DNA of 58,658 nt, counting the filler, from Globobulimina sp. (Eukaryota), in NCBI GenBank assembly GCA_003354225.1. It is 8 parts of 8 records of this genome, joined end to end, with 100 filler letters (N's around TTAATTAATTAA, not from the genome) between each part and the next. Parts side by side here need not be neighbours in the genome. Positions count along the whole stretch, not along the records: positions 14,713 to 21,964 come from PIVH01000180.1; 7 more parts are not named here. One strand, 5' to 3'. The translations under genes and the position numbers were made by a program. Each line of letters begins with the position of its first letter. Within the stretch, counting starts at the first letter, position 1. The notes under the pieces are model-generated. The model did not search any database. It was not told where the DNA came from and worked only from the letters and a program-made list of their open reading frames with translations. This document shows positions 7,257 through 51,429 of this stretch, piece by piece.

Positions 7257-7356
7257 NNNNNNNNNNNNNNNNNNNNNNNNNNNNNNNNNNNNNNNNNNNN
7301 TTAATTAATTAANNNNNNNNNNNNNNNNNNNNNNNNNNNNNNNNNNNNNNNNNNNN
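7257..7356. other. Artificial contig linker N44-TTAATTAATTAA-N44 (same linker at 14613-14712, 21965-22064, 29316-29415, 36666-36765, 44000-44099, 51330-51429)
   Basis: Identical 100-nt N-padded spacer with stops in all six frames. The segments between are 7256, 7256, 7252, 7251, 7250, 7234, 7230 and 7229 bp, i.e. size-sorted contigs. Confidence 0.99.
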
Positions 7357-13396: not shown

Positions 13397-14200
13397 TCAA
13401 TTATGCCCATTAAACCAATTATTATCCAAATATCGCATAGGCGGCGGTGTGTCTTCTCTGCGCCGCCGCTGTCTCTGTCGAACTGATGAATAAAATATAT
13501 TATATCTGCGTTTTTTGGGAGGCGGCGGTGATAAACTTCTCGATTGCGATGCAGCGACAACCGGCGTATCATCACTTAAATCAATATCCGCTGCGGATTC
13601 GCTTCCTTCAATTAATTCCGTACTAGATTCGCCGCTGCCAATATCACTTAATTCCGCTGCGGATTCGCTGCCGGATCTGCTTCCGTCACTCGATCCCGTC
13701 GCAGATTCGCCAATTTCACTTAATTCCGCTGTCAATTCCGGATCGGAGCCTGCTTCAAATTGAAATCTACTGCGTTTACGGTGCCTTTTCATCGCGAATG
13801 TTTCGCCGCTGCCATCTTCATCAAATTCATTCTCTTCAAATTCATCCTCTTCAAATTCATCAAATTCGCTTACATCCGAATCATATTTCAATATCGGATT
13901 TTGACTCCAATCCGGTTCGATTGCCAATTGGTGATATGGTACTCCACAATGCATTACAAATCGCCTTCTTCTTCTCTGCGAGTGCGACGGAGACTGTGAT
14001 TGCGACGGAGACTTCGATTGCGACGGAGACTTCGATTGCGACGGAGACTTCGATTGCGACGGTGATGGTGATGGTGCTGGTGCTGGTGCTGGTGATGGAG
14101 ACTGTGTTAGCTCCGATTCACTAAACGGTGCCATAGGTCCGATATATGCTGGTGATGGCCGCCCTCGATACGTACCGAGTAACCCGAGTCGCGGTCCCAT
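13397..14200 (-). CDS. Low-complexity Ser/Pro/acidic protein with NLS-like motifs
   Basis: 267-aa ORF with SPSQSK repeats, SESAAELS repeats and PPPPKKRR. No domain recognised. Confidence 0.5.
   Translation of the reverse strand: MGPRLGLLGTYRGRPSPAYIGPMAPFSESELTQSPSPAPAPAPSPSPSQSKSPSQSKSPSQSKSPSQSQSPSHSQRRRRRFVMHCGVPYHQLAIEPDWSQNPILKYDSDVSEFDEFEEDEFEENEFDEDGSGETFAMKRHRKRSRFQFEAGSDPELTAELSEIGESATGSSDGSRSGSESAAELSDIGSGESSTELIEGSESAADIDLSDDTPVVAASQSRSLSPPPPKKRRYNIFYSSVRQRQRRRREDTPPPMRYLDNNWFNGHN
13983..14062. repeat. 18-bp tandem repeat (tgcgacggagacttcgat, about 4 copies) encoding SPSQSK
   Basis: Seen directly in the sequence. Confidence 0.9.
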
Positions 14201-14712
14201 ATTCGCATTGAAAACTTTCAGATCTAGTTATCCTTGCACAAGATTTCAGAAAGCAGAGATTGAATTAATTTAAATTATAATAAGTAAAAAAATTAAAAAA
14301 AAGTGAAACAATTCAGTCGATGTGTTTTTTTAGTTTAATTAGAATCGTCGCCAAGGGGAAGGTGGAGGTCCCTGTGATCTTTCTCTTTCTAAAAATTCTC
14401 TTTCTTTTTCATCAAATTCCAGATTAATTTCTTTAATCACATCAATTTCCGATTGTGTAGCTGGGGTTACTCCACTCCAATCAACAAATAAGTCAGGTGG
14501 ATCATAAAAACTACCATTTGATGATGGAGCAGGCGATAAATCCATGTAATTTGGTGATGGTACATTGGATTGTTTTGATCGCGACCATGGCGCAGTTTGT
14601 GCTTTTTGGGAANNNNNNNNNNNNNNNNNNNNNNNNNNNNNNNNNNNNNNNNNNNNTTAATTAATTAANNNNNNNNNNNNNNNNNNNNNNNNNNNNNNNN
14701 NNNNNNNNNNNN

Positions 14713-14919
14713 AGCGTTTGGGCCATCAAATCTAAAACGCCCCGCCAATACTCCTAATTGACCATCAGCAGCGCCTGTTAAGCCCGCGCCCCTCAATTGA
14801 TAATCATTAGTGCCATCATAGACCGTGGCAAATGTCTGATAACCTCCCACTAAAGGATCAAACACATCACCCGTAACACGCCTTAAAACTGGCTGTAAGA
14901 CTGGGTTTAAAACCGTCAT
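14713..14919 (-). CDS. Phage protein, N-terminal fragment, possibly a LamG/ConA-like virion protein
   Basis: ATGA overlap at 14916-14919 gives MTVLNPVLQPVLR..YDGTNDYQLRGAGLTGAADG. The DGTNDY motif often opens LamG-like domains. Truncated by the contig end. Confidence 0.45.
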
Positions 14920-15236
14920 TGAACCGCTTCGACTGAAATAGTCCCGGAGGTGTAAGCCGTACACTCAAAACGATAGCGAACGTTCTTACGGGCGTTTGTG
15001 CCGACATTTTCTATAGGGGCGGTTATGGGAGAACCAACCGTGCGCCATACGCCGTCCTGATTGAAATCTCTCTGAAGTTCTACCGTGCCGACAAATGTGC
15101 CGGATATGCTTACGTCAAAATTGCCCTTGTCTGCAAAAGGGAATTGCCCTTGACCGGCAATATCTAATACGCCAGTACCGGTGAAATCTGCTGATATGTT
15201 TAAAGTGTTTTGACCTATGGGTGACTTGATTGCCAT
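14916..15236 (-). CDS. Small beta-rich phage protein, 106 aa
   Basis: AGGAG SD. The pattern ISGTFVGTVELQRDF..W..YRFECTAYTSGTI is one I recognise from phage hypothetical proteins. Confidence 0.75.
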   Translation of the reverse strand: MAIKSPIGQNTLNISADFTGTGVLDIAGQGQFPFADKGNFDVSISGTFVGTVELQRDFNQDGVWRTVGSPITAPIENVGTNARKNVRYRFECTAYTSGTISVEAVQ

Positions 15237-15274
15237 GAATTTCTCCTAGTTTTTTAGGAGTATAACATAAAGTT

Positions 15275-15418
15275 TTACTTTTTCTTTCTCTTTTTTTTGG
15301 CGCGTCCAGCCTTAGAAAGAGCAATGGCAATGGCGGTCTTCTGTGGCTTGCCTTCACTCCTGAGTTTAGAAATATTCTTTGACACAGTTGCTTTCGATCG
15401 TCCTTTTTTGAGTGGCAT
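15275..15418 (-). CDS. Small basic phage protein, 47 aa ([38 protein letters not shown]...)
   Basis: Translated by hand (below the track cutoff). Matches the common phage MPLKKG..QAxAIAL type. Confidence 0.8.
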
Positions 15419-15541
15419 CTATCCACCTATGAATTGTGCGAGTTCTTGAGACATAAAACTACCAGCAGCAGTAACTACCGATCCTGTGATAATACCATAT
15501 AAATACCATCTTATTCTAGCCGAAACATCTTTTCGTTTCAT
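15419..15541 (-). CDS. 40-aa putative membrane peptide (MKRKDVSARIRWYLYGIITGSVVTAAGSFMSQELAQFIGG)
   Basis: GGAG SD upstream. Its stop abuts the ATG of the next gene. Confidence 0.6.
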   Translation of the reverse strand: MKRKDVSARIRWYLYGIITGSVVTAAGSFMSQELAQFIGG

Positions 15542-15555
15542 GTGAAACACTCCGA

Positions 15556-15585
15556 AAAAGGAGGGAGGCTTTTTACACCTCCCCC
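15556..15585 (-). terminator. Intrinsic terminator closing the hfa-like cassette
   Basis: Minus strand GGGGGAGGTGTAAAAAGCCTCCCTCC-TTTTT, starting 12 nt after the stop at 15597. Confidence 0.8.
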
Positions 15586-15596
15586 AAGTTTACCAG

Positions 15597-16226
15597 CTAG
15601 TGCTTAATAACAACCACGTTCACACGGTTTTGAGCCGTTTGAGTGATGTTGTCGGCATGGGCCACTGCTGACACGTTGCCAGCGACCTGCAAGCTAGATG
15701 AGAATTGATGTGTATCAATATCTACTATATTTCCATTAGGATTTTTCATGGTGATATCAATAAGGTTAATATCATTAGCTGCTACCTGCGTAACATCATC
15801 AAGACCATGTGCGATGGAAACGTTACCAGCAATCTGCGCGTTGCTAACACTCTGGCCTACATGAACGTCTTGATCTCCCATATACCAAACACCATCTTTA
15901 TCATTGATAACAACTTCATTGGCGAGGTTATAGGCGGTTTGGTCTACATCATCACCATGCCAAGCCAAGGCAACGTTACCGGCAATCTGATCAGCATAGA
16001 CGCGCTGGTGAGATCGGTAATCATCATTGTAGGCATCAGTGTCTACAGCTTCGTAAGTATTGGCAACGTTAACCGCTGTCTGCTCAACATTATCGATGCT
16101 ACCAGCAGCGCTAAAGTTGACCGCCAATTGATGACCAACAAAGAGTTGGTTGTTTACGTAGTCATCAGCAGAGGCCGGGGATACGAGGGCAAAGATTGCC
16201 AAGAGTCCTAAAAGTGATTTAATCAT
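15597..16226 (-). CDS. Secreted repeat protein, putative functional-amyloid or beta-solenoid subunit (occupies the HfaD position; curlin/FapC-like)
   Basis: Signal peptide ending ASA. Four repeats of about 36 aa with consensus Q-x5-QxAxN-x7-D[DN][VI]xQxAxNxxN. ATGA overlap with the upstream CsgG/HfaB gene. Confidence 0.75.
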   Translation of the reverse strand: MIKSLLGLLAIFALVSPASADDYVNNQLFVGHQLAVNFSAAGSIDNVEQTAVNVANTYEAVDTDAYNDDYRSHQRVYADQIAGNVALAWHGDDVDQTAYNLANEVVINDKDGVWYMGDQDVHVGQSVSNAQIAGNVSIAHGLDDVTQVAANDINLIDITMKNPNGNIVDIDTHQFSSSLQVAGNVSAVAHADNITQTAQNRVNVVVIKH

Positions 16227-17092
16227 GTTATATCTTCCTGTTTTTCTAAATGTGCGTCCTTGATTGTATTGCCCTCAGGACGTTTAGAGGGGAGTAAAAA
16301 GTCGCATGTATCATCGGCGTTTAAAATATCCTTGGCTATTCTCCAGGCCGCTACTTCAGTGATATAGCGTGCCGTCCATTGTGAGGGGGAGTTGGTTTGT
16401 ACCCCGCCATTGAAATCAGTGAGATTGTCACCAAAGAACTTAAAGACGTTTGCCTTGATCTCTGAGCCATAGATACGCTTGGCTATGGTATTGGAGTAAT
16501 ACAGCTTGGTCGATACTGTTTGCCAGACCTGGAAGTCCGCAGCGACAAGCATCTCGTAGTCTCGGAAACCCGCACCAAATCCTGCAACGTCCAATTCAGC
16601 ACCGCCGCTAGATGTATCCCAGTCCAGATTATTAAAAGCACCAGTGATAAATAAATCAGAACCGCGCATAGAGCCCTTTTTAATCGGACGGAACTTAATA
16701 CTCTTGCCATCCACAACGATACTTTTGCCATCTCCTAATATGCCCTGCTTGGCGTATTTAATCTCCCACTCAGTAACGGCTGTTTGGTGACGGTTAACCA
16801 TTGGGATTCCGGTTTTACCGAGCGCAGCCACCAGCATTTCGGTAGCGCTTAGGGGTAGAGGCGCGCCTTCACCGTCCTGAGTGTATCTGTTGGTTTTATC
16901 CGCAATGTTATGGACGCCAACATGAACCTCTGTGGAAAACTTCTGCAAGCATCGGAGGGCGCTTGAGATAGGTGTATCACCTACAGAGGGGAAATCCCTT
17001 GATATATGCTTAACTTCCTCTACAGCAACGCTCTGAGCGCACGCGGAGAGGGTTAAGACTGCGAGTCCTAGCAATAGCTTACGGCGTAACAT
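16223..17092 (-). CDS. hfaB: CsgG/HfaB-family outer-membrane secretion lipoprotein
   Basis: Lipobox LSAC. HfaB-like blocks TPISSALRCL, VGVHNIADKT, EMLVAALGKTG..VNR, EIKYA, GSDLFITGAF, KRIYGSEIKANVFKFFG. GGGGA SD before the ATG at 17092 (track start 17101). Confidence 0.88.
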   Translation of the reverse strand: MLRRKLLLGLAVLTLSACAQSVAVEEVKHISRDFPSVGDTPISSALRCLQKFSTEVHVGVHNIADKTNRYTQDGEGAPLPLSATEMLVAALGKTGIPMVNRHQTAVTEWEIKYAKQGILGDGKSIVVDGKSIKFRPIKKGSMRGSDLFITGAFNNLDWDTSSGGAELDVAGFGAGFRDYEMLVAADFQVWQTVSTKLYYSNTIAKRIYGSEIKANVFKFFGDNLTDFNGGVQTNSPSQWTARYITEVAAWRIAKDILNADDTCDFLLPSKRPEGNTIKDAHLEKQEDIT

Positions 17093-17444
17093 TGTTATCA
17101 TCCCCGCTTACATTCGTTGCGGTTTGATCATCGCCGTTTTGATTGGCGTTAGTGTTTACATATTCGCTTTCACTAACAACAATTTGATTTTGGATGTTTG
17201 TAGAGGCTTGATAAGTGCCTATATCGGCATGATCGATTGAGCCTGTGTAGGAGTTGTAATTGGTGTTGTAGGTCTTAGAGGTGCCTAAGCCGTTTTTTTT
17301 CATCTCTTGCATGTAAAGCTTTTGAAGCCGTACTGATTTAGATATTGGGTCTTCAAATTGCCATGCTCTAGACTCTTTAAAGCCGCCAGCTTGTGCCGTT
17401 CCTGCAACGAATAGAAAGAATACTAATGCTGTTAACATCTTCAT
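17079..17444 (-). CDS. HfaA-like small secreted protein, 121 aa
   Basis: Signal peptide (AQA). N/Q/T-rich C-terminus ASTNIQNQIVVS..VNTNANQNG..QTA resembles that of HfaA. First gene of the cassette; overlaps the hfaB-like gene; GGGAGA SD. Confidence 0.65.
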   Translation of the reverse strand: MKMLTALVFFLFVAGTAQAGGFKESRAWQFEDPISKSVRLQKLYMQEMKKNGLGTSKTYNTNYNSYTGSIDHADIGTYQASTNIQNQIVVSESEYVNTNANQNGDDQTATNVSGDDNNVTP

Positions 17445-17684
17445 AATAAGGTCTCCCTGTTATGTTTTTTAGTTTTTATTAACTAAAACGGTATAACAAA
17501 GGAGAGTGCAAACATATTCTTTTTAGACGTATAGTTGCATTTTTACAATTGTATGTTGTAATTATAACACGATTAATCCTGTAGTCCTTCTATGATCAAC
17601 CACATACTGACACCAAAGGCACACCACACCAGAAGGAACCCACAGAGATTACCTAATGATTTAGATAATTCTAATATTCTCTCT

Positions 17685-17999
17685 CTAGTAAAATGCACGG
17701 GATGTTGTCCTACAAGGGTTGCATTGCCTGTTCCATATGCCTTCGCTCATAAAGGTATTACCGCATACGATACAGCTTCTCTTTTTCTTCACTTTAACGC
17801 CTAAGCCTAGTTTGACCTTTTGTTTGCTGACTTCACTGGCTTTTATTTTCATCATCTTGGCAATTTCTGCCGTTGCATAACCCTCTTCGTGGTAGGATTC
17901 CAGCAGGGCTATTTGTTTATCTCCCCACACAAAGCCTAGTTGATTATCTATTTCTTCATCTAAATCAAAGAAATCTGGCTGCTCATTCTCTAATGGCAT
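17685..17999 (-). CDS. GcrA-like HTH plus C4 zinc-finger regulator
   Basis: WGDKQIALL..EGYATAEIAKMM..V..KLGL resembles the GcrA N-terminal HTH. Followed by RSCIVCG..FMSEGIWNRQCNPC. Confidence 0.65.
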   Translation of the reverse strand: MPLENEQPDFFDLDEEIDNQLGFVWGDKQIALLESYHEEGYATAEIAKMMKIKASEVSKQKVKLGLGVKVKKKRSCIVCGNTFMSEGIWNRQCNPCRTTSRAFY

Positions 18000-18017
18000 T
18001 GTTAGTCCCCCGACTGT

Positions 18018-18227
18018 TTAATCTTTGTTGCGCGGCTCACTTACTTTCAAACTCAGAAATGACTTGCCTGCTCTATCAGTCTTCAGCCATCCGGCTATCT
18101 CGAAGACGTCCCCCTCCTTAGCGTCTACTGGCAGTGTGAATGTTCCCTTTCTATCAGGGTGTGTGTCTTTGCCCTTGTCGTTCATGTGTAGGGCTCCAGA
18201 ACCGGGGTTCCATTTAAAGTTACTCAT
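18018..18227 (-). CDS. DUF736-like putative ssDNA-binding phage protein, 69 aa
   Basis: GALHMNDK..HPDRKG..IAGWLKTDRAGKSFLSLKV. GGAGAG SD before the ATG at 18227. Confidence 0.65.
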   Translation of the reverse strand: MSNFKWNPGSGALHMNDKGKDTHPDRKGTFTLPVDAKEGDVFEIAGWLKTDRAGKSFLSLKVSEPRNKD

Positions 18228-18237
18228 TCTCTCTCTC

Positions 18238-18645
18238 CTATGTTTTAGGCAATATTCTAGGCAAATTCGATGGCGTAAAATTACAAACAAACCAAGGATA
18301 ATAATCATCTAAATTTTCTGTTCCTACCCTCATCCAGATATGACCTGTTTCAACGTCAACCATCTCGATAATATCTGAATCTTCTTGATAATCTCCTTTG
18401 TCTACATGACGACAAACAATGTCCCTTTGAATATAGTCAGGGTCCCAAAAATCGTATGCCGGACCATTACCTACTAAAATAGGGGCTGCTTGACTACTAT
18501 ATCCATCGTTTCTGTCTTCAAATACGAAATAAACTTTGTCATCCATAGCCCAAGCTATTCCTTCAACATCATCTGTAAATGGATGTCTAATATTAATAGC
18601 AACAGCCTCTAGTTTATGTTTTCCTACTAAATCTTTTAGTTCCAT
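18238..18645 (-). CDS. Phage hypothetical protein, 135 aa
   Basis: ORF with AAGGAAG SD, in operon context. Confidence 0.75.
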   Translation of the reverse strand: MELKDLVGKHKLEAVAINIRHPFTDDVEGIAWAMDDKVYFVFEDRNDGYSSQAAPILVGNGPAYDFWDPDYIQRDIVCRHVDKGDYQEDSDIIEMVDVETGHIWMRVGTENLDDYYPWFVCNFTPSNLPRILPKT

Positions 18646-18972
18646 CTTCTCTTCCTTTCTTCCATAGCTAGTGGCTTTTGGGCATCCCAGAGTATGGGAA
18701 GGACTATGTTACACGTCCTAGGGATTAACCCCGCCTACTAAGCTCGCTTCCGGCTCTCGCCTATCTGTCTCTCGTTGCTAAGACAGTGCATTTGGCTATT
18801 TTTTAGGCCAGCCAACAATTTGGGTTAAACATATTGCAACACACCAAACTGCCTTTACCTTGAATCCATAACGGTCTCTGTACATGCCTCTAGTTGCTGC
18901 CAAGCAGAGCTAGAAAATTTTGGTTGTTTTTAACGAGGAAACCATCCTGTACTGGGGGAATTTTGTAAGGAA

Positions 18973-19002
18973 TTGACACTTTGTTTGTAAGTTTGTTACA
19001 AT
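18973..19002 (+). promoter_or_regulatory. Sigma70-type promoter antisense to the phage operon
   Basis: TTGACA (18973-18978), 18-nt spacer, TACAAT (18997-19002) with an extended TG. Confidence 0.75.
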
Positions 19003-19008
19003 GTGTCT

Positions 19009-19090
19009 ACGATCATTCTCAAATTCCCACCAAAGAAATTTAATGATCGTCATGACCTCGGACATTAACGTGTCGCGAGGTCGTTCTTTT
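19009..19090 (+). ncRNA. Candidate antisense small RNA of about 80 nt (two hairpins, U-rich tail)
   Basis: Starts about 7 nt after the -10 box. Stem acgatcatt/aatgatcgt, then terminator-like gacctcg-gaca..tgtc-g-cgaggtc followed by gttctttt. Confidence 0.6.
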
Positions 19091-19093
19091 ACT

Positions 19094-19291
19094 CTAGGGT
19101 TTGTTTATTTTATTGTCAAGTTTCCCGGGGCGCATACCTGATATTAGTCCTATAATAAAATGTGTGGCGAAGGTTGCTAAAACGACAGCGAATGCAAACC
19201 AATAAGATTCTACGATAACAAAATGTGCCATTGTCCCGCCAAAAAGAGTATCTCTTATACTGAATCTAGATTTTATCATAAAATTAATCAT
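19094..19291 (-). CDS. Small membrane protein, 65 aa
   Basis: Hydrophobic segments; AAGGA SD. Confidence 0.6.
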   Translation of the reverse strand: MINFMIKSRFSIRDTLFGGTMAHFVIVESYWFAFAVVLATFATHFIIGLISGMRPGKLDNKINKP

Positions 19292-19309
19292 GTGCTGTTC
19301 CTTTTGCTG

Positions 19310-19480
19310 TCAAGTTTGCATATCATGTTCAATTATTATTCGACCTATCTCATCCATAGTTTTACCGAACAACAACATAGTTCCTTCATTGTTAAAAATC
19401 TCTTTTCTAACGGTATCCCATGAAATCATAACTTTGTTATTATTAATATCTTCAACGATAAGAACTTCATTCTGTTTCAT
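19310..19480 (-). CDS. Phage hypothetical protein, 56 aa
   Basis: ATGA overlap at 19477-19480; translated by hand (MKQNEVLIVED...). Confidence 0.55.
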   Translation of the reverse strand: MKQNEVLIVEDINNNKVMISWDTVRKEIFNNEGTMLLFGKTMDEIGRIIIEHDMQT

Positions 19481-19845
19481 TTCACCATCCTCAACTTTCC
19501 ATCTCGTTCTAGCTTATCCTTAGTCCCCTGCATTTTGTCGTAGTTGTCTGCAAGGCGCTTTCGCTCATCTTCGTCATAGTCTAAAAAACGTGCTTGATGT
19601 AGATACACCTGAAACCCCGGAACGAACTTTAACTCCTCTTCCGGTGTGGTCATACACATGGATTTGATAGCCTCTAAGAGCGCTTCCTCTGTCTCTGTAA
19701 CCTTTCCTAGCTTGATAGGGCTAGAATCCACTCTAGCAACGCATTGGTGGCCTGTGGTGGTTATTTCCTGCCATAGAGCGCGGGAGGAGGCTTTTTTAGA
19801 TCGGTTAGCGTGGTGGGGGTAGGTGGACCAGGCTGTGTTAAACAT
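19477..19845 (-). CDS. Protein resembling the C-terminal domain of phage replication initiators
   Basis: FNTAWSTYP..KK..W and KFVPGFQVYLHQARFLD match the F..FW..YP.K / Y(I)P...WLN..RW.D pattern. No N-terminal HTH. Confidence 0.65.
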   Translation of the reverse strand: MFNTAWSTYPHHANRSKKASSRALWQEITTTGHQCVARVDSSPIKLGKVTETEEALLEAIKSMCMTTPEEELKFVPGFQVYLHQARFLDYDEDERKRLADNYDKMQGTKDKLERDGKLRMVK

Positions 19846-20164
19846 TGCCGGCGCTCCTGGCTTTTAGGGCGGCTATGCAGATGGCTAGGGGTGCACTCAT
19901 TGAAAAACCTTGGTGAAATTCAGCGTATTCTGGTGCGTTATCAACATTAGAAAAAGCTGCCATCCATTGCAAATCTACGTTTTGGCCTAAAGATAATAAC
20001 CAGTCTTCAGACACCAACGTTAAAGCACCATCTATGGATGTTGTGAAAGGTGTTAGTGTTGCCCCCTCTTTTAAATCGAGCGCTCTACAAATATCCACAT
20101 CTAGATTAAAACTACCCTCTGTAGCCTCTTCAAGCTGTGCTATTAGGTCTTCTATATCAGCCAT
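19838..20164 (-). CDS. Phage protein, ABA-sandwich-like
   Basis: LIAQLEEATEGS..LDVDI, FTTSIDGALTLV, APLAICIAALKAR. TAATG overlap with the upstream gene. Confidence 0.6.
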   Translation of the reverse strand: MADIEDLIAQLEEATEGSFNLDVDICRALDLKEGATLTPFTTSIDGALTLVSEDWLLSLGQNVDLQWMAAFSNVDNAPEYAEFHQGFSMSAPLAICIAALKARSAGNV

Positions 20165-20649
20165 TAGTCTCCCCCCGGTGGTGTGGGTAGTGGTTGCCAT
20201 TTATCTGGACCATAACCCTCTATAAATGATTGCCGCCCCTCGCTGTCATACCAAGACCAGACAACACCGTTATATGTAGCCTCATAAACATGATCTCCAT
20301 TAGCTATTATAACAGGCGTGTGGATAGGCGCATAATCTATGTTTTGCCATTGGTCTTTAATAACAAATAGATTACCAGTAGGTCCGGCTTTCAATTGTTC
20401 AACGTCTTCTGGTGTTAGTTTTTCAGGGTCGAAGACAGGGGGTTGTTCTTCAGCTAATTCATCAAGTAATTTTACCCATGTTTCTAATTGACCGTGACTA
20501 GGCCAAAGTCCGCATGGTATAGTCATAATTGCTGTACCGTCATAAGTCTCTAAGCCTTCTTTGTCTCGGTTTTCTTTATTATGCTTCAGCCAGTCCTTCA
20601 TAATTGAAGACATTATTTTCAAGCCTATGTGTTTGTCTGCCATCTTCAT
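20164..20649 (-). CDS. Phage protein with C-terminal DUF551-like domain
   Basis: WQNIDYAP..VII..W..PDKWQPLPTPP. Confidence 0.75.
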   Translation of the reverse strand: MKMADKHIGLKIMSSIMKDWLKHNKENRDKEGLETYDGTAIMTIPCGLWPSHGQLETWVKLLDELAEEQPPVFDPEKLTPEDVEQLKAGPTGNLFVIKDQWQNIDYAPIHTPVIIANGDHVYEATYNGVVWSWYDSEGRQSFIEGYGPDKWQPLPTPPGGD

Positions 20650-20807
20650 CAAACAGGTGCTCCCGTTACTGTGTCGCGTGTGTGTTCCGTCTCAATCTCA
20701 GCTTTTAGCTGCTCGTTCATAATTTGGCGTAGCTTCTTTAGATAATAGCGCTTCATACCGTGGCGGGCTGTGCGGTAGTTATATTGTGCTTGTTCAAGAT
20801 TTTTCAT
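20649..20807 (-). CDS. Phage hypothetical protein, 52 aa
   Basis: Coupled on both sides (ATGA at 20804-20807, TGATG at 20647-20651). Translated by hand. Confidence 0.6.
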   Translation of the reverse strand: MKNLEQAQYNYRTARHGMKRYYLKKLRQIMNEQLKAEIETEHTRDTVTGAPV

Positions 20808-21154
20808 TTCACGATCTCCACAGGAATGCCGGTTAAGGCTTCCACAAGTTTGTATTTAAGCTTCCAAAGTTGGGTAGCTGCTCCACTGCCGATATAACCC
20901 TTTACGTCCTCTAAAACTTTTCGATCATCAGAAGTCATGACGTAGCCAAAATCTATTTTAGTAAATCCGCATTTCTTACCGTTGATAATAAAATCAATAC
21001 GGACTTGGCGCTCTAAATCTTTAATGATGAAAGACTTTTGTAATAGAACTAAATCGCGCCACCTACGTGCCTCTGCTTGGCTATCGAACTTTATACCGTC
21101 AACAATAGTTTTCTTGGCGTTGAATTTATTTTTAGCTGTAAATGCGTGTTTCAT
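20804..21154 (-). CDS. DUF1064-family PD-(D/E)XK endonuclease
   Basis: NKFNAKKTIVDGIKFDSQAEARR, LERQV, IDFGY, EDVKG. Confidence 0.9.
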   Translation of the reverse strand: MKHAFTAKNKFNAKKTIVDGIKFDSQAEARRWRDLVLLQKSFIIKDLERQVRIDFIINGKKCGFTKIDFGYVMTSDDRKVLEDVKGYIGSGAATQLWKLKYKLVEALTGIPVEIVK

Positions 21155-21163
21155 GTTTCCTCT

Positions 21164-21214
21164 AAAAAAATGGGGCTAGAACTATTCAGGAGTGATTGAA
21201 GCATCCTAGCCCCC
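21164..21214 (-). terminator. Intrinsic terminator between the cro region and the DUF1064 gene
   Basis: Minus strand GGGGCTAG..CTAGCCCC-ATTTTTTT. Confidence 0.75.
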
Positions 21215-21317
21215 AAGTTAACAGGGAGGAGTTAAACTATGATGATAAGTGCCAATCCACATATAAAGGCTACTACTATCAAGCGTTGGCGTTCTAATGC
21301 AGTCATGTGCTTATCCT

Positions 21318-21506
21318 TTAATCGTAAAAACTTTTAGGCGGTACGCGCCCCTTCGTTAATTCATCGATCTTTTGTGCAAGGCCCAAACTCGGTTTTCTCG
21401 ATCCTGTTTCAATCCGAGATAATGTGGCCTCTTTTATACCTAGCGTCTTAGCGAGTTCTGCTAAGGTTAGCTTTTTGCGTTTCCGCCATGTTCTTAATGT
21501 TTCCAT
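21318..21506 (-). CDS. Cro-like XRE HTH regulator, 62 aa
   Basis: LRTWRKRKKLTLAELAKTLGIKEATLSRIETGSRKPS. GAGG SD before the ATG at 21506. Confidence 0.9.
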   Translation of the reverse strand: METLRTWRKRKKLTLAELAKTLGIKEATLSRIETGSRKPSLGLAQKIDELTKGRVPPKSFYD

Positions 21507-21513
21507 ACCTCTC

Positions 21514-21600
21514 TTATTACATATAAGGAAAGTAGCGTCAAGAAAAAAACTTTCCAAAAAGGTAAAAACTATTTGACAACACTTTCCAACGTGGTAATAT
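21514..21600. promoter_or_regulatory. Divergent promoters with three operator-like palindromes TTWCC-N5-GGWAA
   Basis: ttacatataaggaaa 21517-21531 (one mismatch), tttccaaaaaggtaa 21551-21565, tttccaacgtggtaa 21583-21597. TTGACG on minus (21541-21536) and TTGACA on plus (21573-21578). Confidence 0.75.
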
Positions 21601-21631
21601 GTAATCATAAACAAACGCATGGAGAGTTAAA

Positions 21632-21811
21632 ATGATTACCATCAAAGTTAACGAAACAAACGTAGACGTAATTAAATCTGACGAGGTTCTTTATACCTTT
21701 TGTGCTTATCGTCAGTCAGAGAACATTTCGGCGGCGTACGGCATAACAGAGGAATTGTTTCCATACGAAGAAGTTAATCTTGATGAAAGTGGGTTGTCTC
21801 ATGTTGCATAG
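21632..21811 (+). CDS. Phage hypothetical protein, 59 aa, divergent from cro
   Basis: GGAGAG SD; MITIKVNETNVDVIKSD..; no HTH. Confidence 0.65.
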   Translation: MITIKVNETNVDVIKSDEVLYTFCAYRQSENISAAYGITEELFPYEEVNLDESGLSHVA

Positions 21812-22064
21812 CGCTATCACATTTGTCTTAGACAAGAAAAACCTTGGGAAGATGTCTTCATATATGAAGCGCCAGGAATCAGACAGTCGTTATTTTGAAC
21901 AAATGCGGGCTCATGTTGATGAGGGTGGAAAGATAACGGAAAGCCAGAGAATTCAGCTAAAGCANNNNNNNNNNNNNNNNNNNNNNNNNNNNNNNNNNNN
22001 NNNNNNNNTTAATTAATTAANNNNNNNNNNNNNNNNNNNNNNNNNNNNNNNNNNNNNNNNNNNN

Positions 22065-23167: not shown

Positions 23168-25444
23168 ATGTACTCAAGAAGTCTTGCTTGTTTATGTCGC
23201 CGTCAATGTTGCAAACACCAACCACCAACAACCAATTACATTTATGATAATCATTATTCATATTTATTGTACACCAATCACCATCATTACATTTCTCACG
23301 CAACATCAAATAAACATAACCGTCATAATCAACTTAACCTAACATTTCCAATCCGATGCTTTGCTACCAAACAAACGGAGAACACAACCACAACCACAGA
23401 GCATGACGATAGCTACCTGGACCTCGACGAAGAACAACAACCCGAACAAGAACAAGAAAGCAGTAAATCACGCAAATGGAAATCATCCCAAACTAAACGT
23501 GGCCAAAGAATGGATAAAATTGATAGTCCCTCCACCTCCGAACCAGCTATAAAACCATCAAAATGGAGCTCCATTAAGTCCGTAATAAACAAACCATTCG
23601 CCGCTATAAAAGCAAAAACATCGCGTAAAAAAAAAACGGATGATTCCGAGTCAGAAACAAAAACAAAAACAATCAAGAAAGAAAAATTAGTACACAGACC
23701 GGGCAAGAAATCATTACCTTCGCCGGGTGAGGGTATCATGACATTTATACCCAAGCACAAAGCACAAATATTGCATATATTACAGGAAGAATGCAACATT
23801 TTCCCTGACGAAGTATTTCCGTTATTCCCTGATCATAAAACTGAGGAAATCCTCGCTGGTATTTTTTATATACGTTTCCTTTGAAATTTATAGAATTTTC
23901 TCATGTCCACAGATGCCGAGGATTGGACCGGTGAAAGCATCAAATTTGTGGATGATGAGCAAACCAAAAAATTAATAACAGCACAGGATGATACCTCCGA
24001 AGAAGAAGACTCTGAATCTGATGAAGACGAACAGCGATATATTGATCCAGACCAACATGGTAAAAAAAAACAATTATTACTACAACAAACAGAGAAATCG
24101 AAGAGTGATTCATTAATTATACCTAAAAAAACGCCGTTAAGTCAGCTAAAAGCGGAGAAACGCATAGAAACACTGAGCATAGCGGAGTTAATGAGTGATA
24201 AACCAAAGACCACTGCGTCGAAATTGCGCGACCATAAAGTCTCCGGTATCGATGTAGACGACGAACGGAGTAAATTTCGGGAAATGTCTGTGATGAATCC
24301 ATATAAATATAGGCGGATTATGACACCTCAGCAAGTGAAGCAATTATATGCGGATGAAATAGGAGATAAAAAGGGTGAGGATGAGGATGTATTGGATGTG
24401 GATGGTGCTGATATATGGGCGCAAGACGCAGATAATGTGTATGAAATCGTTCAGTTATTACGGGAGTTGGGATTCAAAACCAATCAGAATAGCGCAGTGT
24501 GGCCATATACAGAGTTTATGAAGTCTGAAATGGAGATGTCTGGGGATGTGGATACGGGGAAAGAAGGGGATGGCGGAAGTGGCGAAACTGCAGTGGTGTT
24601 GCATGAGGGGAGCGGATTGAATCCGATTGCTGACACATTTAATGATTTTTATTTATTATTTGCACGATTTCCAGAGATATTATCGATGGAATTGAACGAT
24701 ATTCGACGGAAGTTACATGTTTTAGAACAGTTTCAAATCGATGATATTCGGATATTGTTATTGAAAGATCCGCGGATTTTAAGGCGGCCATCACATCACA
24801 TTCGGTGGTTATTGGAGGTGTTTGATGATTATTTTATTGACGATTTTACGCAAATTATTGAATTATCGCCACATTTTTTAGCCTCTACATCGAAGAAAGA
24901 AATGGTGAAAAGGCTATGTTTTATTCATAAAGAGATATTGCAACCATATCAAGAGTATAATAATGAGATTGATAAGGACTCAGTGTATAGGAATATGCAA
25001 ATTGAGTTGAAACATTTGCATAAAAATTCGGAATTTATTATAAAACATGGTGTTGCTATACAGAAAGATAAGAATTTGGAGAATGATATGATAAATGGGG
25101 TGTATTTGGATGATTTGGATAAGGAGAATTTATCGAATTTTATTATAAAACATGTGGATTTCATTGGTAATGCGAATGTAAATAGAATGTGTGAAATAAA
25201 AGGGTTGTTAAAGAAATTAGGGATAAAAAATAAAAAATTAAATGATTTGTTGTATGAATATCCGCAGATTTTAACCATTTCACCACAGGCATTGCATGAA
25301 TGTGTGCATCAAATTAAAATAAATGGTATTCGGGATTACAGACAATATTTTATTGATAATATTCATGATGTTTTGACGTATTGTTCACCGATTGACAGTG
25401 TTGTAACTACTCATCATCAGCAGCTTGAGACACTGCAGCAATAA
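23168..25444 (+). CDS. mTERF-repeat protein with putative mitochondrial presequence (intron 23859-23912)
   Basis: Repeats FARFPEILSM, LLKDPRILRR, IELSPHFLAS, LYEYPQILTI. Arg-rich N-terminus ending RCFAT. In-frame 54-nt GT-AG intron. Confidence 0.8.
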
Positions 25445-29315: not shown

Positions 29316-29415
29316 NNNNNNNNNNNNNNNNNNNNNNNNNNNNNNNNNNNNNNNNNNNNTTAATTAATTAANNNNNNNNNNNNNNNNNNNNNNNNNNNNN
29401 NNNNNNNNNNNNNNN

Positions 29416-36665: not shown

Positions 36666-37079
36666 NNNNNNNNNNNNNNNNNNNNNNNNNNNNNNNNNNN
36701 NNNNNNNNNTTAATTAATTAANNNNNNNNNNNNNNNNNNNNNNNNNNNNNNNNNNNNNNNNNNNNTTGTTTAATTTTTTTATATATTTTCATCATTTTCT
36801 GTGTTTTGTTTTTAAGAAAATTTTTATCTGTTTCCACCTCTATATCTTTTCTATATTATTCATGTGTGTTTTCTTTTATTTTGCCACAACGTTTTCTGAT
36901 TGCAGTGCTATCTATTTATACAGCTGAAAACACATAACATGTAAATCCGAGCAAGTTACACAGTCTCATAGAAAAACTACGGTGAGACTGTCAAAATTAG
37001 ATGAATGGCAGTATGCACTCTCTATTACAAATCCCTGAGTTGTAGAGTTGCGGCACTATTTATATTTTAAATTCTAAGG

Positions 37080-43471: not shown

Positions 43472-44588
43472 TGCAAGAAAAAAGAAGTTTTTTCGAACTC
43501 TCAAACTTTACTTTAGTCATTATCAATTTCCTTATTATTTTTATCATGGACAACCACCTCACTCAGTCAACTCCAATCAACAATGCATTCAATGGCGCAT
43601 TCCATAGAGTCTGCGATGGAGATGGATCTAGTTTTAATTTTTTCCAAGATAATAGCCGAATACATAGTATTAACAGATGCATTTATGCATAGCATTAATA
43701 ACAAACCTTTATTTGTGTTACAAATAATAATCAGTGCCCATTGGTACCTATAATCGATGCTGCATTTAATGCTGGAATTTCAATAACAAAAATTAAAAAA
43801 AATGAAATTAAAGTTGAGTACTAGTATAATATGACATATATATGTTACCTATGTGCGATTTACCGTTACGCGACCCCTAACTCAAAAAGCACAAACGTAA
43901 ATTTTATGGGTGAGCCTTAGGGCTGGCTTTGTCTTGCAATGCGTTGTGAGTCTGTACGTTTGTGTTGGGCTGTTGGTGAGCCTTGTCGTGCTGGTGAGTN
44001 NNNNNNNNNNNNNNNNNNNNNNNNNNNNNNNNNNNNNNNNNNNTTAATTAATTAANNNNNNNNNNNNNNNNNNNNNNNNNNNNNNNNNNNNNNNNNNNNT
44101 AAAAGAAACAAATGAAAATTGACAAACTTTATTGATAATACAGTAGTATTTAATGAGAGTAGTTTCTAAAAATATCTCTTTAGTTTAGTTTAGTATCTTA
44201 TATAGTCGTGAATTCGAACTGAGCATAATATATTACTAATACAATTGAATATGCAGATTCCAGTTTATTATAGTTAGAGAATCCCAAACACAACATTCTT
44301 TCACTTCACTTCACTAACTTACATGCTCTGTTCTTTTTGTTTGAGAAACACTCTTTTAACGCTCAGCTTACCGCTCCTTTATACACTCGCTACAACGCCA
44401 AGAATTGTATTGCCGTGTCTCGGCCGTACATTACAATTTACCTATATTCTATATACAGCTTTTTATTTATATTATCATAATTCCTTTCTTCTTTATAATA
44501 TCCTTCTTATCCATCAATTTTCTGTGTTTCAACAAATTTTTGTTTGTGTTTTTTATTTATTATTATCAATAATTATATTACGTTTAAT

Positions 44589-51329: not shown

Positions 51330-51429
51330 NNNNNNNNNNNNNNNNNNNNNNNNNNNNNNNNNNNNNNNNNNNNTTAATTAATTAANNNNNNNNNNNNNNN
51401 NNNNNNNNNNNNNNNNNNNNNNNNNNNNN

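Follow-up and report, generated by a model that had tools for sequence, protein, structure and literature searches.

A candidate phage-borne CsgG/HfaB-type secretion cassette with two partner proteins of unnamed families

Can a phage-like contig carry a secretion pore together with the proteins that pass through it? The question is raised by three overlapping genes in a 58,658-base stretch of DNA (hereafter the window) from the Globobulimina sp. assembly GCA_003354225.1. The genes, located on the minus strand from 17444 to 15597, encode a small secreted protein, a predicted lipoprotein of the CsgG/HfaB superfamily and a secreted repeat protein, designated open reading frames (ORFs) A, B and C. 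The window consists of eight unrelated pieces (7256, 7256, 7252, 7251, 7250, 7234, 7230 and 7229 bases, in descending order of size) joined by seven spacers of the form N44-TTAATTAATTAA-N44, and for this reason only piece 3 (14713-21964) was taken as context for the cassette. We regard it as probable, though by no means assured, that the cassette is a self-contained CsgG/HfaB (type VIII-like) secretion module, an accessory 'moron' of a phage or prophage of a Gram-negative host, itself probably an alphaproteobacterium. ORF-C is presumed to be its exported fibre or adhesin subunit.

The cassette and its three products

The three genes are translationally coupled. ORF-A (17079..17444, minus strand; 121 amino acids) has the N-terminus MKMLTALVFFLFVAGTAQA/GG, in which the signal peptide ends VAGTAQA/GG. 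ORF-B (16223..17092, minus strand) encodes 289 amino acids, or 292 if translation starts from an ATG at 17101, and carries the lipobox LTLSAC with Ala at position +2. The start at 17092 was favoured because GGGGA lies 8 nucleotides (nt) ahead of it. The end of ORF-A covers the first 14 nt of ORF-B, or 23 nt if the earlier ATG is used, and the overlap of ORF-B with ORF-C is the tetranucleotide ATGA. ORF-C (15597..16226, minus strand; 209 amino acids) begins with a signal peptide ending LVSPASA/DD. All export signals, two signal peptides and one lipobox, were identified from the sequence by eye. Upstream of the cassette lies an AT-rich spacer (17445..17572, minus strand) of 128 nt with a guanine plus cytosine (GC) content of 27.3%, against 42.4% for the contig, and a GGGAGA ribosome-binding site precedes ORF-A within it. 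The cassette is closed by an intrinsic terminator (15561..15585, minus strand) with a 9-pair stem, 6 of the pairs G-C, and a T run; it ranked first of the 10 terminator-like sites found, where shuffles gave 6.8 ± 2.6. An earlier note on this DNA had described overlapping genes, all with export signals (both genes flanking the pore gene encoding exported proteins), behind an AT-rich region and ahead of a terminator, and this description was confirmed. The GC content of the cassette (45.5%) contrasts mildly with that of its flanks (44.3% and 41.1%).

ORF-B scored above the gathering score of the Pfam family CsgG (PF03783; 36.6 bits against 20.8), with residues 57-248 aligned to positions 8-190 of the 210 in the profile. 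A profile built from ORF-B and three close relatives matched five distinct sequences in the PDB, all of them CsgG, the best at E = 9e-11 over 233 positions. These three relatives (53-60% identity), all metagenomic, were the only close ones among 5.8 billion proteins. The best NCBIfam match was HfaB (NF037935; E = 9.1e-32), at 110.3 bits under the equivalog cut-off of 300 bits; jumbo-phage proteins (207 and 235 bits) and a protein of the alphaproteobacterial genome G274 (159 bits) also remain below this cut-off.

A scan of species-representative genomes yielded 73 loci, mostly from Alphaproteobacteria, with relatives 25-38% identical to ORF-B. For a quick maximum-likelihood tree of 52 rows, 43 of these loci were selected for their fuller matches and combined with the G274 protein, the window clade and three phage proteins, with Escherichia coli CsgG as outgroup. 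ORF-B and its three close metagenomic relatives formed one clade (Shimodaira-Hasegawa-like approximate likelihood ratio test, SH-aLRT, 99), long branches being flagged in the tree. This clade fell outside a 46-row clade (SH-aLRT 99) that united the HfaB-like proteins of canonical hfaA-type loci, of loci with a WQF-type first gene (described below) and of jumbo phages; the G274 protein also lay outside it. Because of this position, and because 110 bits is far under 300, ORF-B is on its sequence a deep-branching member of the CsgG/HfaB superfamily and not an HfaB orthologue. The HfaB/CsgG label given in the earlier note thus stands for the superfamily and the lipoprotein, and falls for the HfaB equivalog. 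ORF-B is presumed to be an outer-membrane lipoprotein acting as a secretion pore.

ORF-A consists of the signal peptide, the motif G-x-x-E-x-x-x-W-Q-F and an N/Q/T-rich tail ending Q-N-G-D-D-Q-T-A-T. It matched no Pfam or NCBIfam model, and no PDB entry at E <= 10. When the 73 loci, with 1503 ORFs in all, were searched with ORF-A by phmmer, five matches were obtained (best E = 4.2e-5), each of them the gene directly upstream of an HfaB-like gene. In family alignments, these WQF proteins and the first genes of jumbo-phage triads share G-x-x-E-x-x-x-W-Q/K-F-x-T-x-A-D-R-A-N past the signal peptide; the jumbo phages have W-K-F-R-T-P where ORF-A has W-Q-F-E-D-P. When a profile of nine WQF members excluding ORF-A was run against the 589 six-frame ORFs of the window, ORF-A was the sole match (7.7e-10; next 0.59). 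Counted by motif, six of the 73 loci have a WQF-type protein, 53 have canonical HfaA motifs and 16 have neither; two of the 53 were also counted as WQF, owing to a shared C-terminal Q-T-N-x-G-x-Q, and four of the 16 lack upstream DNA. A motif like this C-terminal one is common to WQF and canonical HfaA proteins, as judged by eye only. ORF-A is, by these motifs and profiles, a member of a WQF-motif family without an existing name, found upstream of HfaB-like genes in integrative and conjugative elements (ICEs), on a Loktanella plasmid and in Caulobacter/Brevundimonas jumbo phages.

Two named families were tried for ORF-A and rejected. The proposal that it is HfaA-like was not borne out: the HfaA model NF037934 gave no match at E <= 1, the positive control (L013:3411-3944) reached 73.5 bits against a cut-off of 50, and the WQF proteins did not match this model either. 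As for CsgF, BLASTP to the E. coli protein gave E = 1.5, hhalign a probability of 0.13, and the Pfam CsgF model matched none of the nine members at E <= 10. A likeness between the N-terminus of ORF-A and the pore-binding N-terminus of CsgF found no support in these BLASTP, hhalign and Pfam tests.

ORF-C is built of four units of about 48 residues, starting at residues 33, 80, 131 and 180, each of the form Q-x-A-x-N ... Q-x-A-x-N-x-x-N. In the family alignments, Q, A or N at alternate positions account for nearly every invariant column. No Pfam or NCBIfam family was matched, and a word search against the 5.8 billion proteins gave no match. The family is rare: six matches were obtained among 1.84 billion representatives. 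One of the six, a protein with Ig-like repeats (P0008; 1346 amino acids), was judged spurious and discarded, only 46 residues of ORF-C being matched. Four longer proteins were gained by a profile search, and two of these come from Boseongicola and Rhodophyticola (Rhodobacterales). Among 401 sampled genomes of one alphaproteobacterial class a single genome had a family member, corresponding to 1 of 44 in its order. A leave-one-out family profile recovered ORF-C at E = 5.9e-32, the next best ORF of the window scoring 0.6.

An assignment of ORF-C to HfaD or curlin was not recovered by profile. The HfaD model NF037936 matched neither ORF-C at E <= 1 nor its relatives P0004-P0009. Pfam Curlin gave nothing at E <= 1, BLASTP to E. 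coli CsgA gave E = 0.18, and the family profile gave E = 0.34 against CsgA. The family profile excluding ORF-C did match gp243 of the jumbo phage CcrColossus at 5.3e-9, with a bias as large as the score, and gp243 in turn is weakly HfaD-like. Atlas searches returned scores of 0.83-0.92 only, with an HfaD cluster at 0.83 for ORF-C, and were treated as leads only. A distant relationship between ORF-C and HfaD is, on these profile scores, a lead and no more.

These comparisons bear on whether the cassette is a true holdfast anchor, whose products would tether a polysaccharide adhesin of the host to the cell as Caulobacter HfaABD do. The order small protein, pore, repeat protein is that of hfaA-hfaB-hfaD, as the earlier note had observed, HfaB is the best NCBIfam match of ORF-B, and the weak match of the ORF-C-family profile to jumbo-phage HfaD-like proteins points the same way. 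Caulobacter also resembles the window in that a CsgG-like lipoprotein lies beside two secreted proteins, which form multimers in Caulobacter (PMC6707917). However, the cassette matched none of the three NCBIfam equivalog models at its cut-off, the clade with the canonical hfaA-type loci in it does not include ORF-B, and there are no holdfast synthesis genes on the contig. We give a holdfast anchor a very small chance.

Related loci and known systems

Besides the window, all three families were found together at two loci: contig 35 of genome G274 and plasmid NZ_CP072995 of Loktanella salsilacus. In G274, an alphaproteobacterial chromosome, a secreted protein of 111 amino acids, an HfaB-like lipoprotein (32% identity to ORF-B, 6e-45) and an ORF-C-family protein of 359 amino acids follow one another on one strand in the order of the window. 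On the Loktanella plasmid (194.0-198.2 kb; L088 3501-7712) a WQF-type protein of 127 amino acids (profile 5.9e-9) is followed by a CsgG/HfaB protein, the best named relative of ORF-B at 38% identity, and two paralogous ORF-C-family genes (367 and 428 amino acids; 5.1e-61 and 1.4e-24) run convergent to this pair. Both loci differ from the window in being on cellular replicons and in having longer repeat proteins (359-428 amino acids), and the Loktanella locus also in the convergent direction of its repeat genes. The genes concerned are annotated as hypothetical or 'CsgG/HfaB family'. Taken together, the window, Loktanella and G274 loci appear to define the module.

Further genes were seen beside these two triads. 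In G274, a second small secreted protein (L081 8802-9131, plus strand) shares with the 111-amino-acid protein a C-terminal tail of the form G-N-G-S-I...I-D-N...G-G-I-G-F/Y, and may be its paralogue. The Loktanella locus has an extra gene for 156 amino acids between the pore and repeat genes, and a LuxR-type regulator is encoded nearby.

The earlier note knew of no complete module of this kind in a phage. This did not hold on either of two counts. Pelagiphages carry complete type VIII secretion modules with CsgF, CsgG and CsgA/B, accompanied by FecR and a cyclase (PMC9599517). Similarly, a tblastn search of 50,697 phage records with ORF-B matched nine records from seven phages, all of them jumbo phages of Caulobacter or Brevundimonas (CcrColossus, CcrPW, Bambus, Domovoi, Papperlapapp, Marchewka and Kabachok), with pores 25-29% identical to ORF-B. 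Triads were read in three of the GenBank records, in which a WQF-type gene (163-165 amino acids), an HfaB-like gene and an HfaD-like gene (309-355 amino acids) lie in a row: L001 2380-4744 (CcrColossus gp241-gp243), L002 2366-4971 and L003 2380-4745. A terminator is annotated past the triad only in the CcrColossus record; one record labels the pore gene 'transcription activator hfaB'. No paper on phage triads of the hfaABD type, those of the jumbo phages included, was found in a search of literature outside subscription journals and supplements, and the main text of the phiCbK genomics paper (PMC3556154) does not mention curli, CsgG or hfa.

The jumbo phages are like the window in that the genes are phage-borne and stand in the same order. 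They differ in the clade of the pore, in a third gene that is HfaD-like (NF037936, 24-31 bits) and showed no relationship to ORF-C in BLASTP, and in genomes of 280-357 kb. The pelagiphage modules, in HTVC023P-type podophages and pelagimyophages, likewise combine a phage-borne CsgG-family pore, a small accessory protein and a repeat fibre gene. In contrast to these modules, no pelagiphage CsgG matched ORF-B at E <= 1e-3 in the tblastn search, ORF-A is not CsgF and ORF-C not a curlin repeat by the Pfam and E. coli protein comparisons, and the window contig has no FecR, kinase or cyclase genes. The carriers differ as well, the window being a contig of cro/DUF1064 type and the pelagiphage system belonging to lytic pelagiphages. 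The roles proposed for the pelagiphage modules are superinfection defence, 'sibling capture' and import (PMC9599517), and those of aggregation or 'sibling capture' and of superinfection defence are the same as those proposed here for the window cassette.

E. coli curli resembles the window in its CsgG pore, matched by ORF-B in both Pfam and the PDB, and in the CsgA fibril, the best structural match of ORF-C by VIA-align (see below). However, homologues of CsgE and CsgF are absent from the window cassette, and the ORF-C unit of about 48 residues compares with about 22 in curlin, to which it has no sequence similarity.

Triads with an HfaB-like pore were also found in conjugative surroundings. 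In Pseudoxanthomonas (L010, 250-6375) and in a Rhizobiales genome (L018, 178-6419), the genes directly past trbF-trbG-trbI encode a small protein of WQF type, an HfaB-like pore and a protein of 454-462 amino acids. The trb genes before the triad and a large serine recombinase after it (L010) point to a conjugative element. HfaB-type triads thus ride on conjugative elements, plasmids and phages, and the partner proteins with which HfaB-like pores work fall into three or more different sets. Known systems already include both the kind of the window cassette, a pore and a fibre carried by a phage, and its layout of small protein, pore and repeat protein; its pore lineage and its two partner families are without names.

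A wider reading may be drawn from these loci, which we put forward tentatively and do not expect to hold in full. The window, the Loktanella plasmid and G274 might share an undescribed three-component surface-fibre system, in which a WQF protein acts as nucleator or anchor, a deep-branching member of the CsgG/HfaB superfamily as pore and a Q-x-A-x-N beta-solenoid as subunit. With curli and the holdfast anchor, there would then be three type VIII-like kinds. HfaB-type triads as a group would be mobile adhesion modules moving among ICEs, plasmids, jumbo phages and small temperate phages. Through the phage copy, an infected or lysogenic cell would come to bear a functional-amyloid-like fibre, with altered aggregation or a block to superinfection as the result.

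Export route, carrier and alternatives

On the favoured reading of a self-contained secretion module, all three products would cross the inner membrane by Sec. ORF-B would be lipidated, sent to the outer membrane and assembled into an oligomeric channel as CsgG is, and ORF-A and ORF-C would pass through this channel unfolded. Outside, ORF-C would fold as a beta-solenoid with Q/N ladders and build up a fibre or a surface layer. ORF-A would stay at the pore, like HfaA or CsgB/CsgF, and nucleate or anchor the fibre. For Caulobacter, PMC6707917 states that HfaB is required to place HfaA and HfaD on the cell surface. The phage would likely benefit from an altered surface of the infected or lysogenic cell, through aggregation or adhesion, or through receptor masking against superinfection.

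Curli-type secretion carried by phages has been described, but to our knowledge no bench test of it has ever been made. The published phage cases are those of pelagiphages, whose hosts are hard to handle. The window cassette, by comparison, is self-contained at 1.85 kb and easy to express, and the cellular loci closest to it belong to Roseobacter-group bacteria that can be cultured, so that what a phage gains from building a fibre on its host could become directly testable. Its value is chiefly that of a compact, testable example of a phage-borne secretion unit with its own two cargo/anchor proteins.

The results that weigh for and against the secretion-module reading are brought together here, with the alternatives to it. 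Concerning the fibre, the structure of ORF-C was modelled with AlphaFold2 from an 11-row alignment, giving an all-beta protein of four strand-plus-hairpin units (predicted local distance difference test, pLDDT, 86.4; predicted template modelling score 0.78). A beta-solenoid fold is well supported by this model, and ORF-C may be amyloid-like. Foldseek placed FapC (9u4u_A) first, with E = 3.7e-4 and a template modelling (TM) score of 0.13, and CsgA at rank 12. Among 48,161 chains, VIA-align placed the CsgA fibril (8enq_A) first (Z 7.1; root-mean-square deviation, rmsd, 7.5 A over 93 residues), followed by SufD/SufB-type beta-helices (Z 5.1-5.7; rmsd 2.7-3.7 A over 116-119 residues) and by beta-helices of two-partner secretion (Z 4.3-4.8); Z values under 8 are within the stated background of the tool. 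Since the CsgA and FapC matches are weak and the SufD-type helices superpose at lower rmsd, the term 'amyloid' is not established.

ORF-C might accordingly be a monomeric beta-helix adhesin or surface coat, exported via ORF-B and anchored by ORF-A, for example as a receptor mask or decoy and not as an amyloid-like polymer. The lower rmsd to the non-amyloid SufD/SufB-type helices and the alignment of two-partner-secretion domains agree with this, as do the relatives of 360-640 amino acids, which resemble long single-chain solenoids, and the lack of a Pfam Curlin match at E up to 1. On the other hand, CsgG-type channels are known for the export of unfolded amyloid subunits, the invariant Q, A and N on alternate residues resemble the ladder-forming positions of curlin, and CsgA and FapC came top in two independent fold searches. 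We hold a monomeric coat to be rather unlikely, while a fibre subunit remains the reading preferred for ORF-C.

Concerning the pore, the AlphaFold2 model of ORF-B, obtained from a 4-sequence alignment, had a pLDDT of 36.4 and was unusable for a fold search. The segment YPASNFST of E. coli CsgG, which we take to be the constriction loop with residues Tyr, Asn and Phe, faces a different, shorter loop in the ORF-B-family profile (HMMER), and in this alignment the constriction loop does not appear to be conserved. A complex prediction with three copies of ORF-B (residues 22-275) and three of ORF-A (residues 20-70), run without supplied alignments, scored 0.02 and weighs neither way. The pore might also be the only part of use to the phage, for lysis timing or as an uptake channel, with ORF-A and ORF-C as dispensable passengers. 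Such roles have been proposed for phage csgGF genes that are not accompanied by fibre genes; in PMC9004378, the csgGF of the methylophage Melnitz is discussed as a lysis-related pore. In the window, however, translational coupling ties both partner genes to the pore gene, which together with the co-occurrence of all three families at two bacterial loci argues that they work as a unit. A pore acting alone is hard to credit.

Concerning expression and independent support, a sigma-70 consensus scan gave no minus-strand promoter-like site in the spacer 17445-17572, for which reason this spacer is no more than presumed to be the promoter region. Pairwise BLASTP of ORF-A against the small proteins of G274 and Loktanella was not significant, and the link between the first genes of the three loci therefore rests on profiles and position. 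One public sequencing run contains the contig, which is tiled by eight Logan contigs at an even depth of 3.5-8, one of them spanning the 3' border of the cassette. Since this run is probably the source sample, tiling and bridging do not count as independent support. The run is not on record as RNA.

Concerning the carrier, no terminase, capsid, portal or integrase gene was found on the 7.25-kb piece 3. The cassette could thus be an ordinary host surface locus, the contig being a fragment of an ICE, of a degraded prophage or of a bacterial chromosome. The sister triads past trbF-trbG-trbI (L010, L018) and on a plasmid are consistent with this. ORF-A and ORF-C, moreover, had no match in the 50,697 phage records. 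Against this reading, at least 13 small genes lie on the minus strand of piece 3. They include a cro/cI-type helix-turn-helix (HTH) regulator (21318..21509, minus strand; phrog_8 at 2.8e-10 and 20 further PHROG families, mostly regulators) and a DUF1064, Holliday-junction-resolvase-like gene (20804..21154, minus strand; Pfam DUF1064 45.8 bits against 24.7, phrog_190 at 2.5e-23). Matches to phrog_2423, phrog_13335 and phrog_27926, whose functions are not assigned in PHROG, were also obtained, and weaker ones to replication-initiator and single-stranded DNA-binding protein families. A 135-amino-acid protein shares 35% identity with one from Erythrobacter phage vB_EliS-L02 and has five relatives in IMG/VR. 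A prophage, in addition, would still count as phage-borne. We consider a non-phage contig improbable and the carrier likely to be a phage or prophage, in agreement with the phage-like contig of the earlier note; a temperate lifestyle is no more than suggested by the HTH gene.

The same note had placed the cassette between early and late genes. The early side is upheld by the HTH and DUF1064/phrog_190 genes; the late or virion side depends on one weak link, provided by a protein of 106 amino acids encoded downstream of the cassette (14916..15236, minus strand). This protein has no PHROG or Pfam match of its own, and shares 43% identity with one encoded on an IMG/VR contig (L087), where the gene lies 3.5 kb ahead of a phrog_332 head-tail adaptor gene. 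Its gene is possibly the start of a late module.

Neighbouring genes and the other pieces

Directly past the terminator lies an ORF of 43 amino acids with one hydrophobic helix (15419-15550, minus strand), followed by a Lys-rich protein of 47 amino acids (15275-15418, minus strand) that gave the match to phrog_2423 (1.4e-16). When the contig DNA was compared with phages, the sole match was one of 64 bases to Listeria phages, located under the DUF1064 gene. Scans of viral, metagenome and genome contig collections with ORF-B or the ORF-B-family profile yielded no loci, nor did a scan with a neighbouring protein of 162 amino acids. At 21318-21811, the HTH gene (minus strand) and an ORF of 59 amino acids (plus strand) diverge from a short region, resembling the layout of a cro/cI switch. 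A promoter-like site on the plus strand (21573-21600), with 10 of 12 consensus positions and a TG, lies between these two genes.

The spacers that separate the pieces are at 7257-7356, 14613-14712, 21965-22064, 29316-29415, 36666-36765, 44000-44099 and 51330-51429. The steady fall in size from piece to piece suggests that the pieces are entire contigs of a single assembly, ranked by length. The GC content of the other seven pieces is 34-39%, against 42.4% for piece 3. When ten large ORFs from these pieces were tested, one had a Pfam family, mTERF (23903-25444, plus strand), which is typical of eukaryotes. By GC content and this match the seven pieces look eukaryotic, and the phage-like contig probably derives from a bacterium or phage associated with the eukaryote's assembly. 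In the neighbouring piece, an ORF of 267 amino acids (13397-14200, minus strand) with SPSQSK repeats and acidic runs shows low complexity in the eukaryotic style and is unrelated to the cassette.

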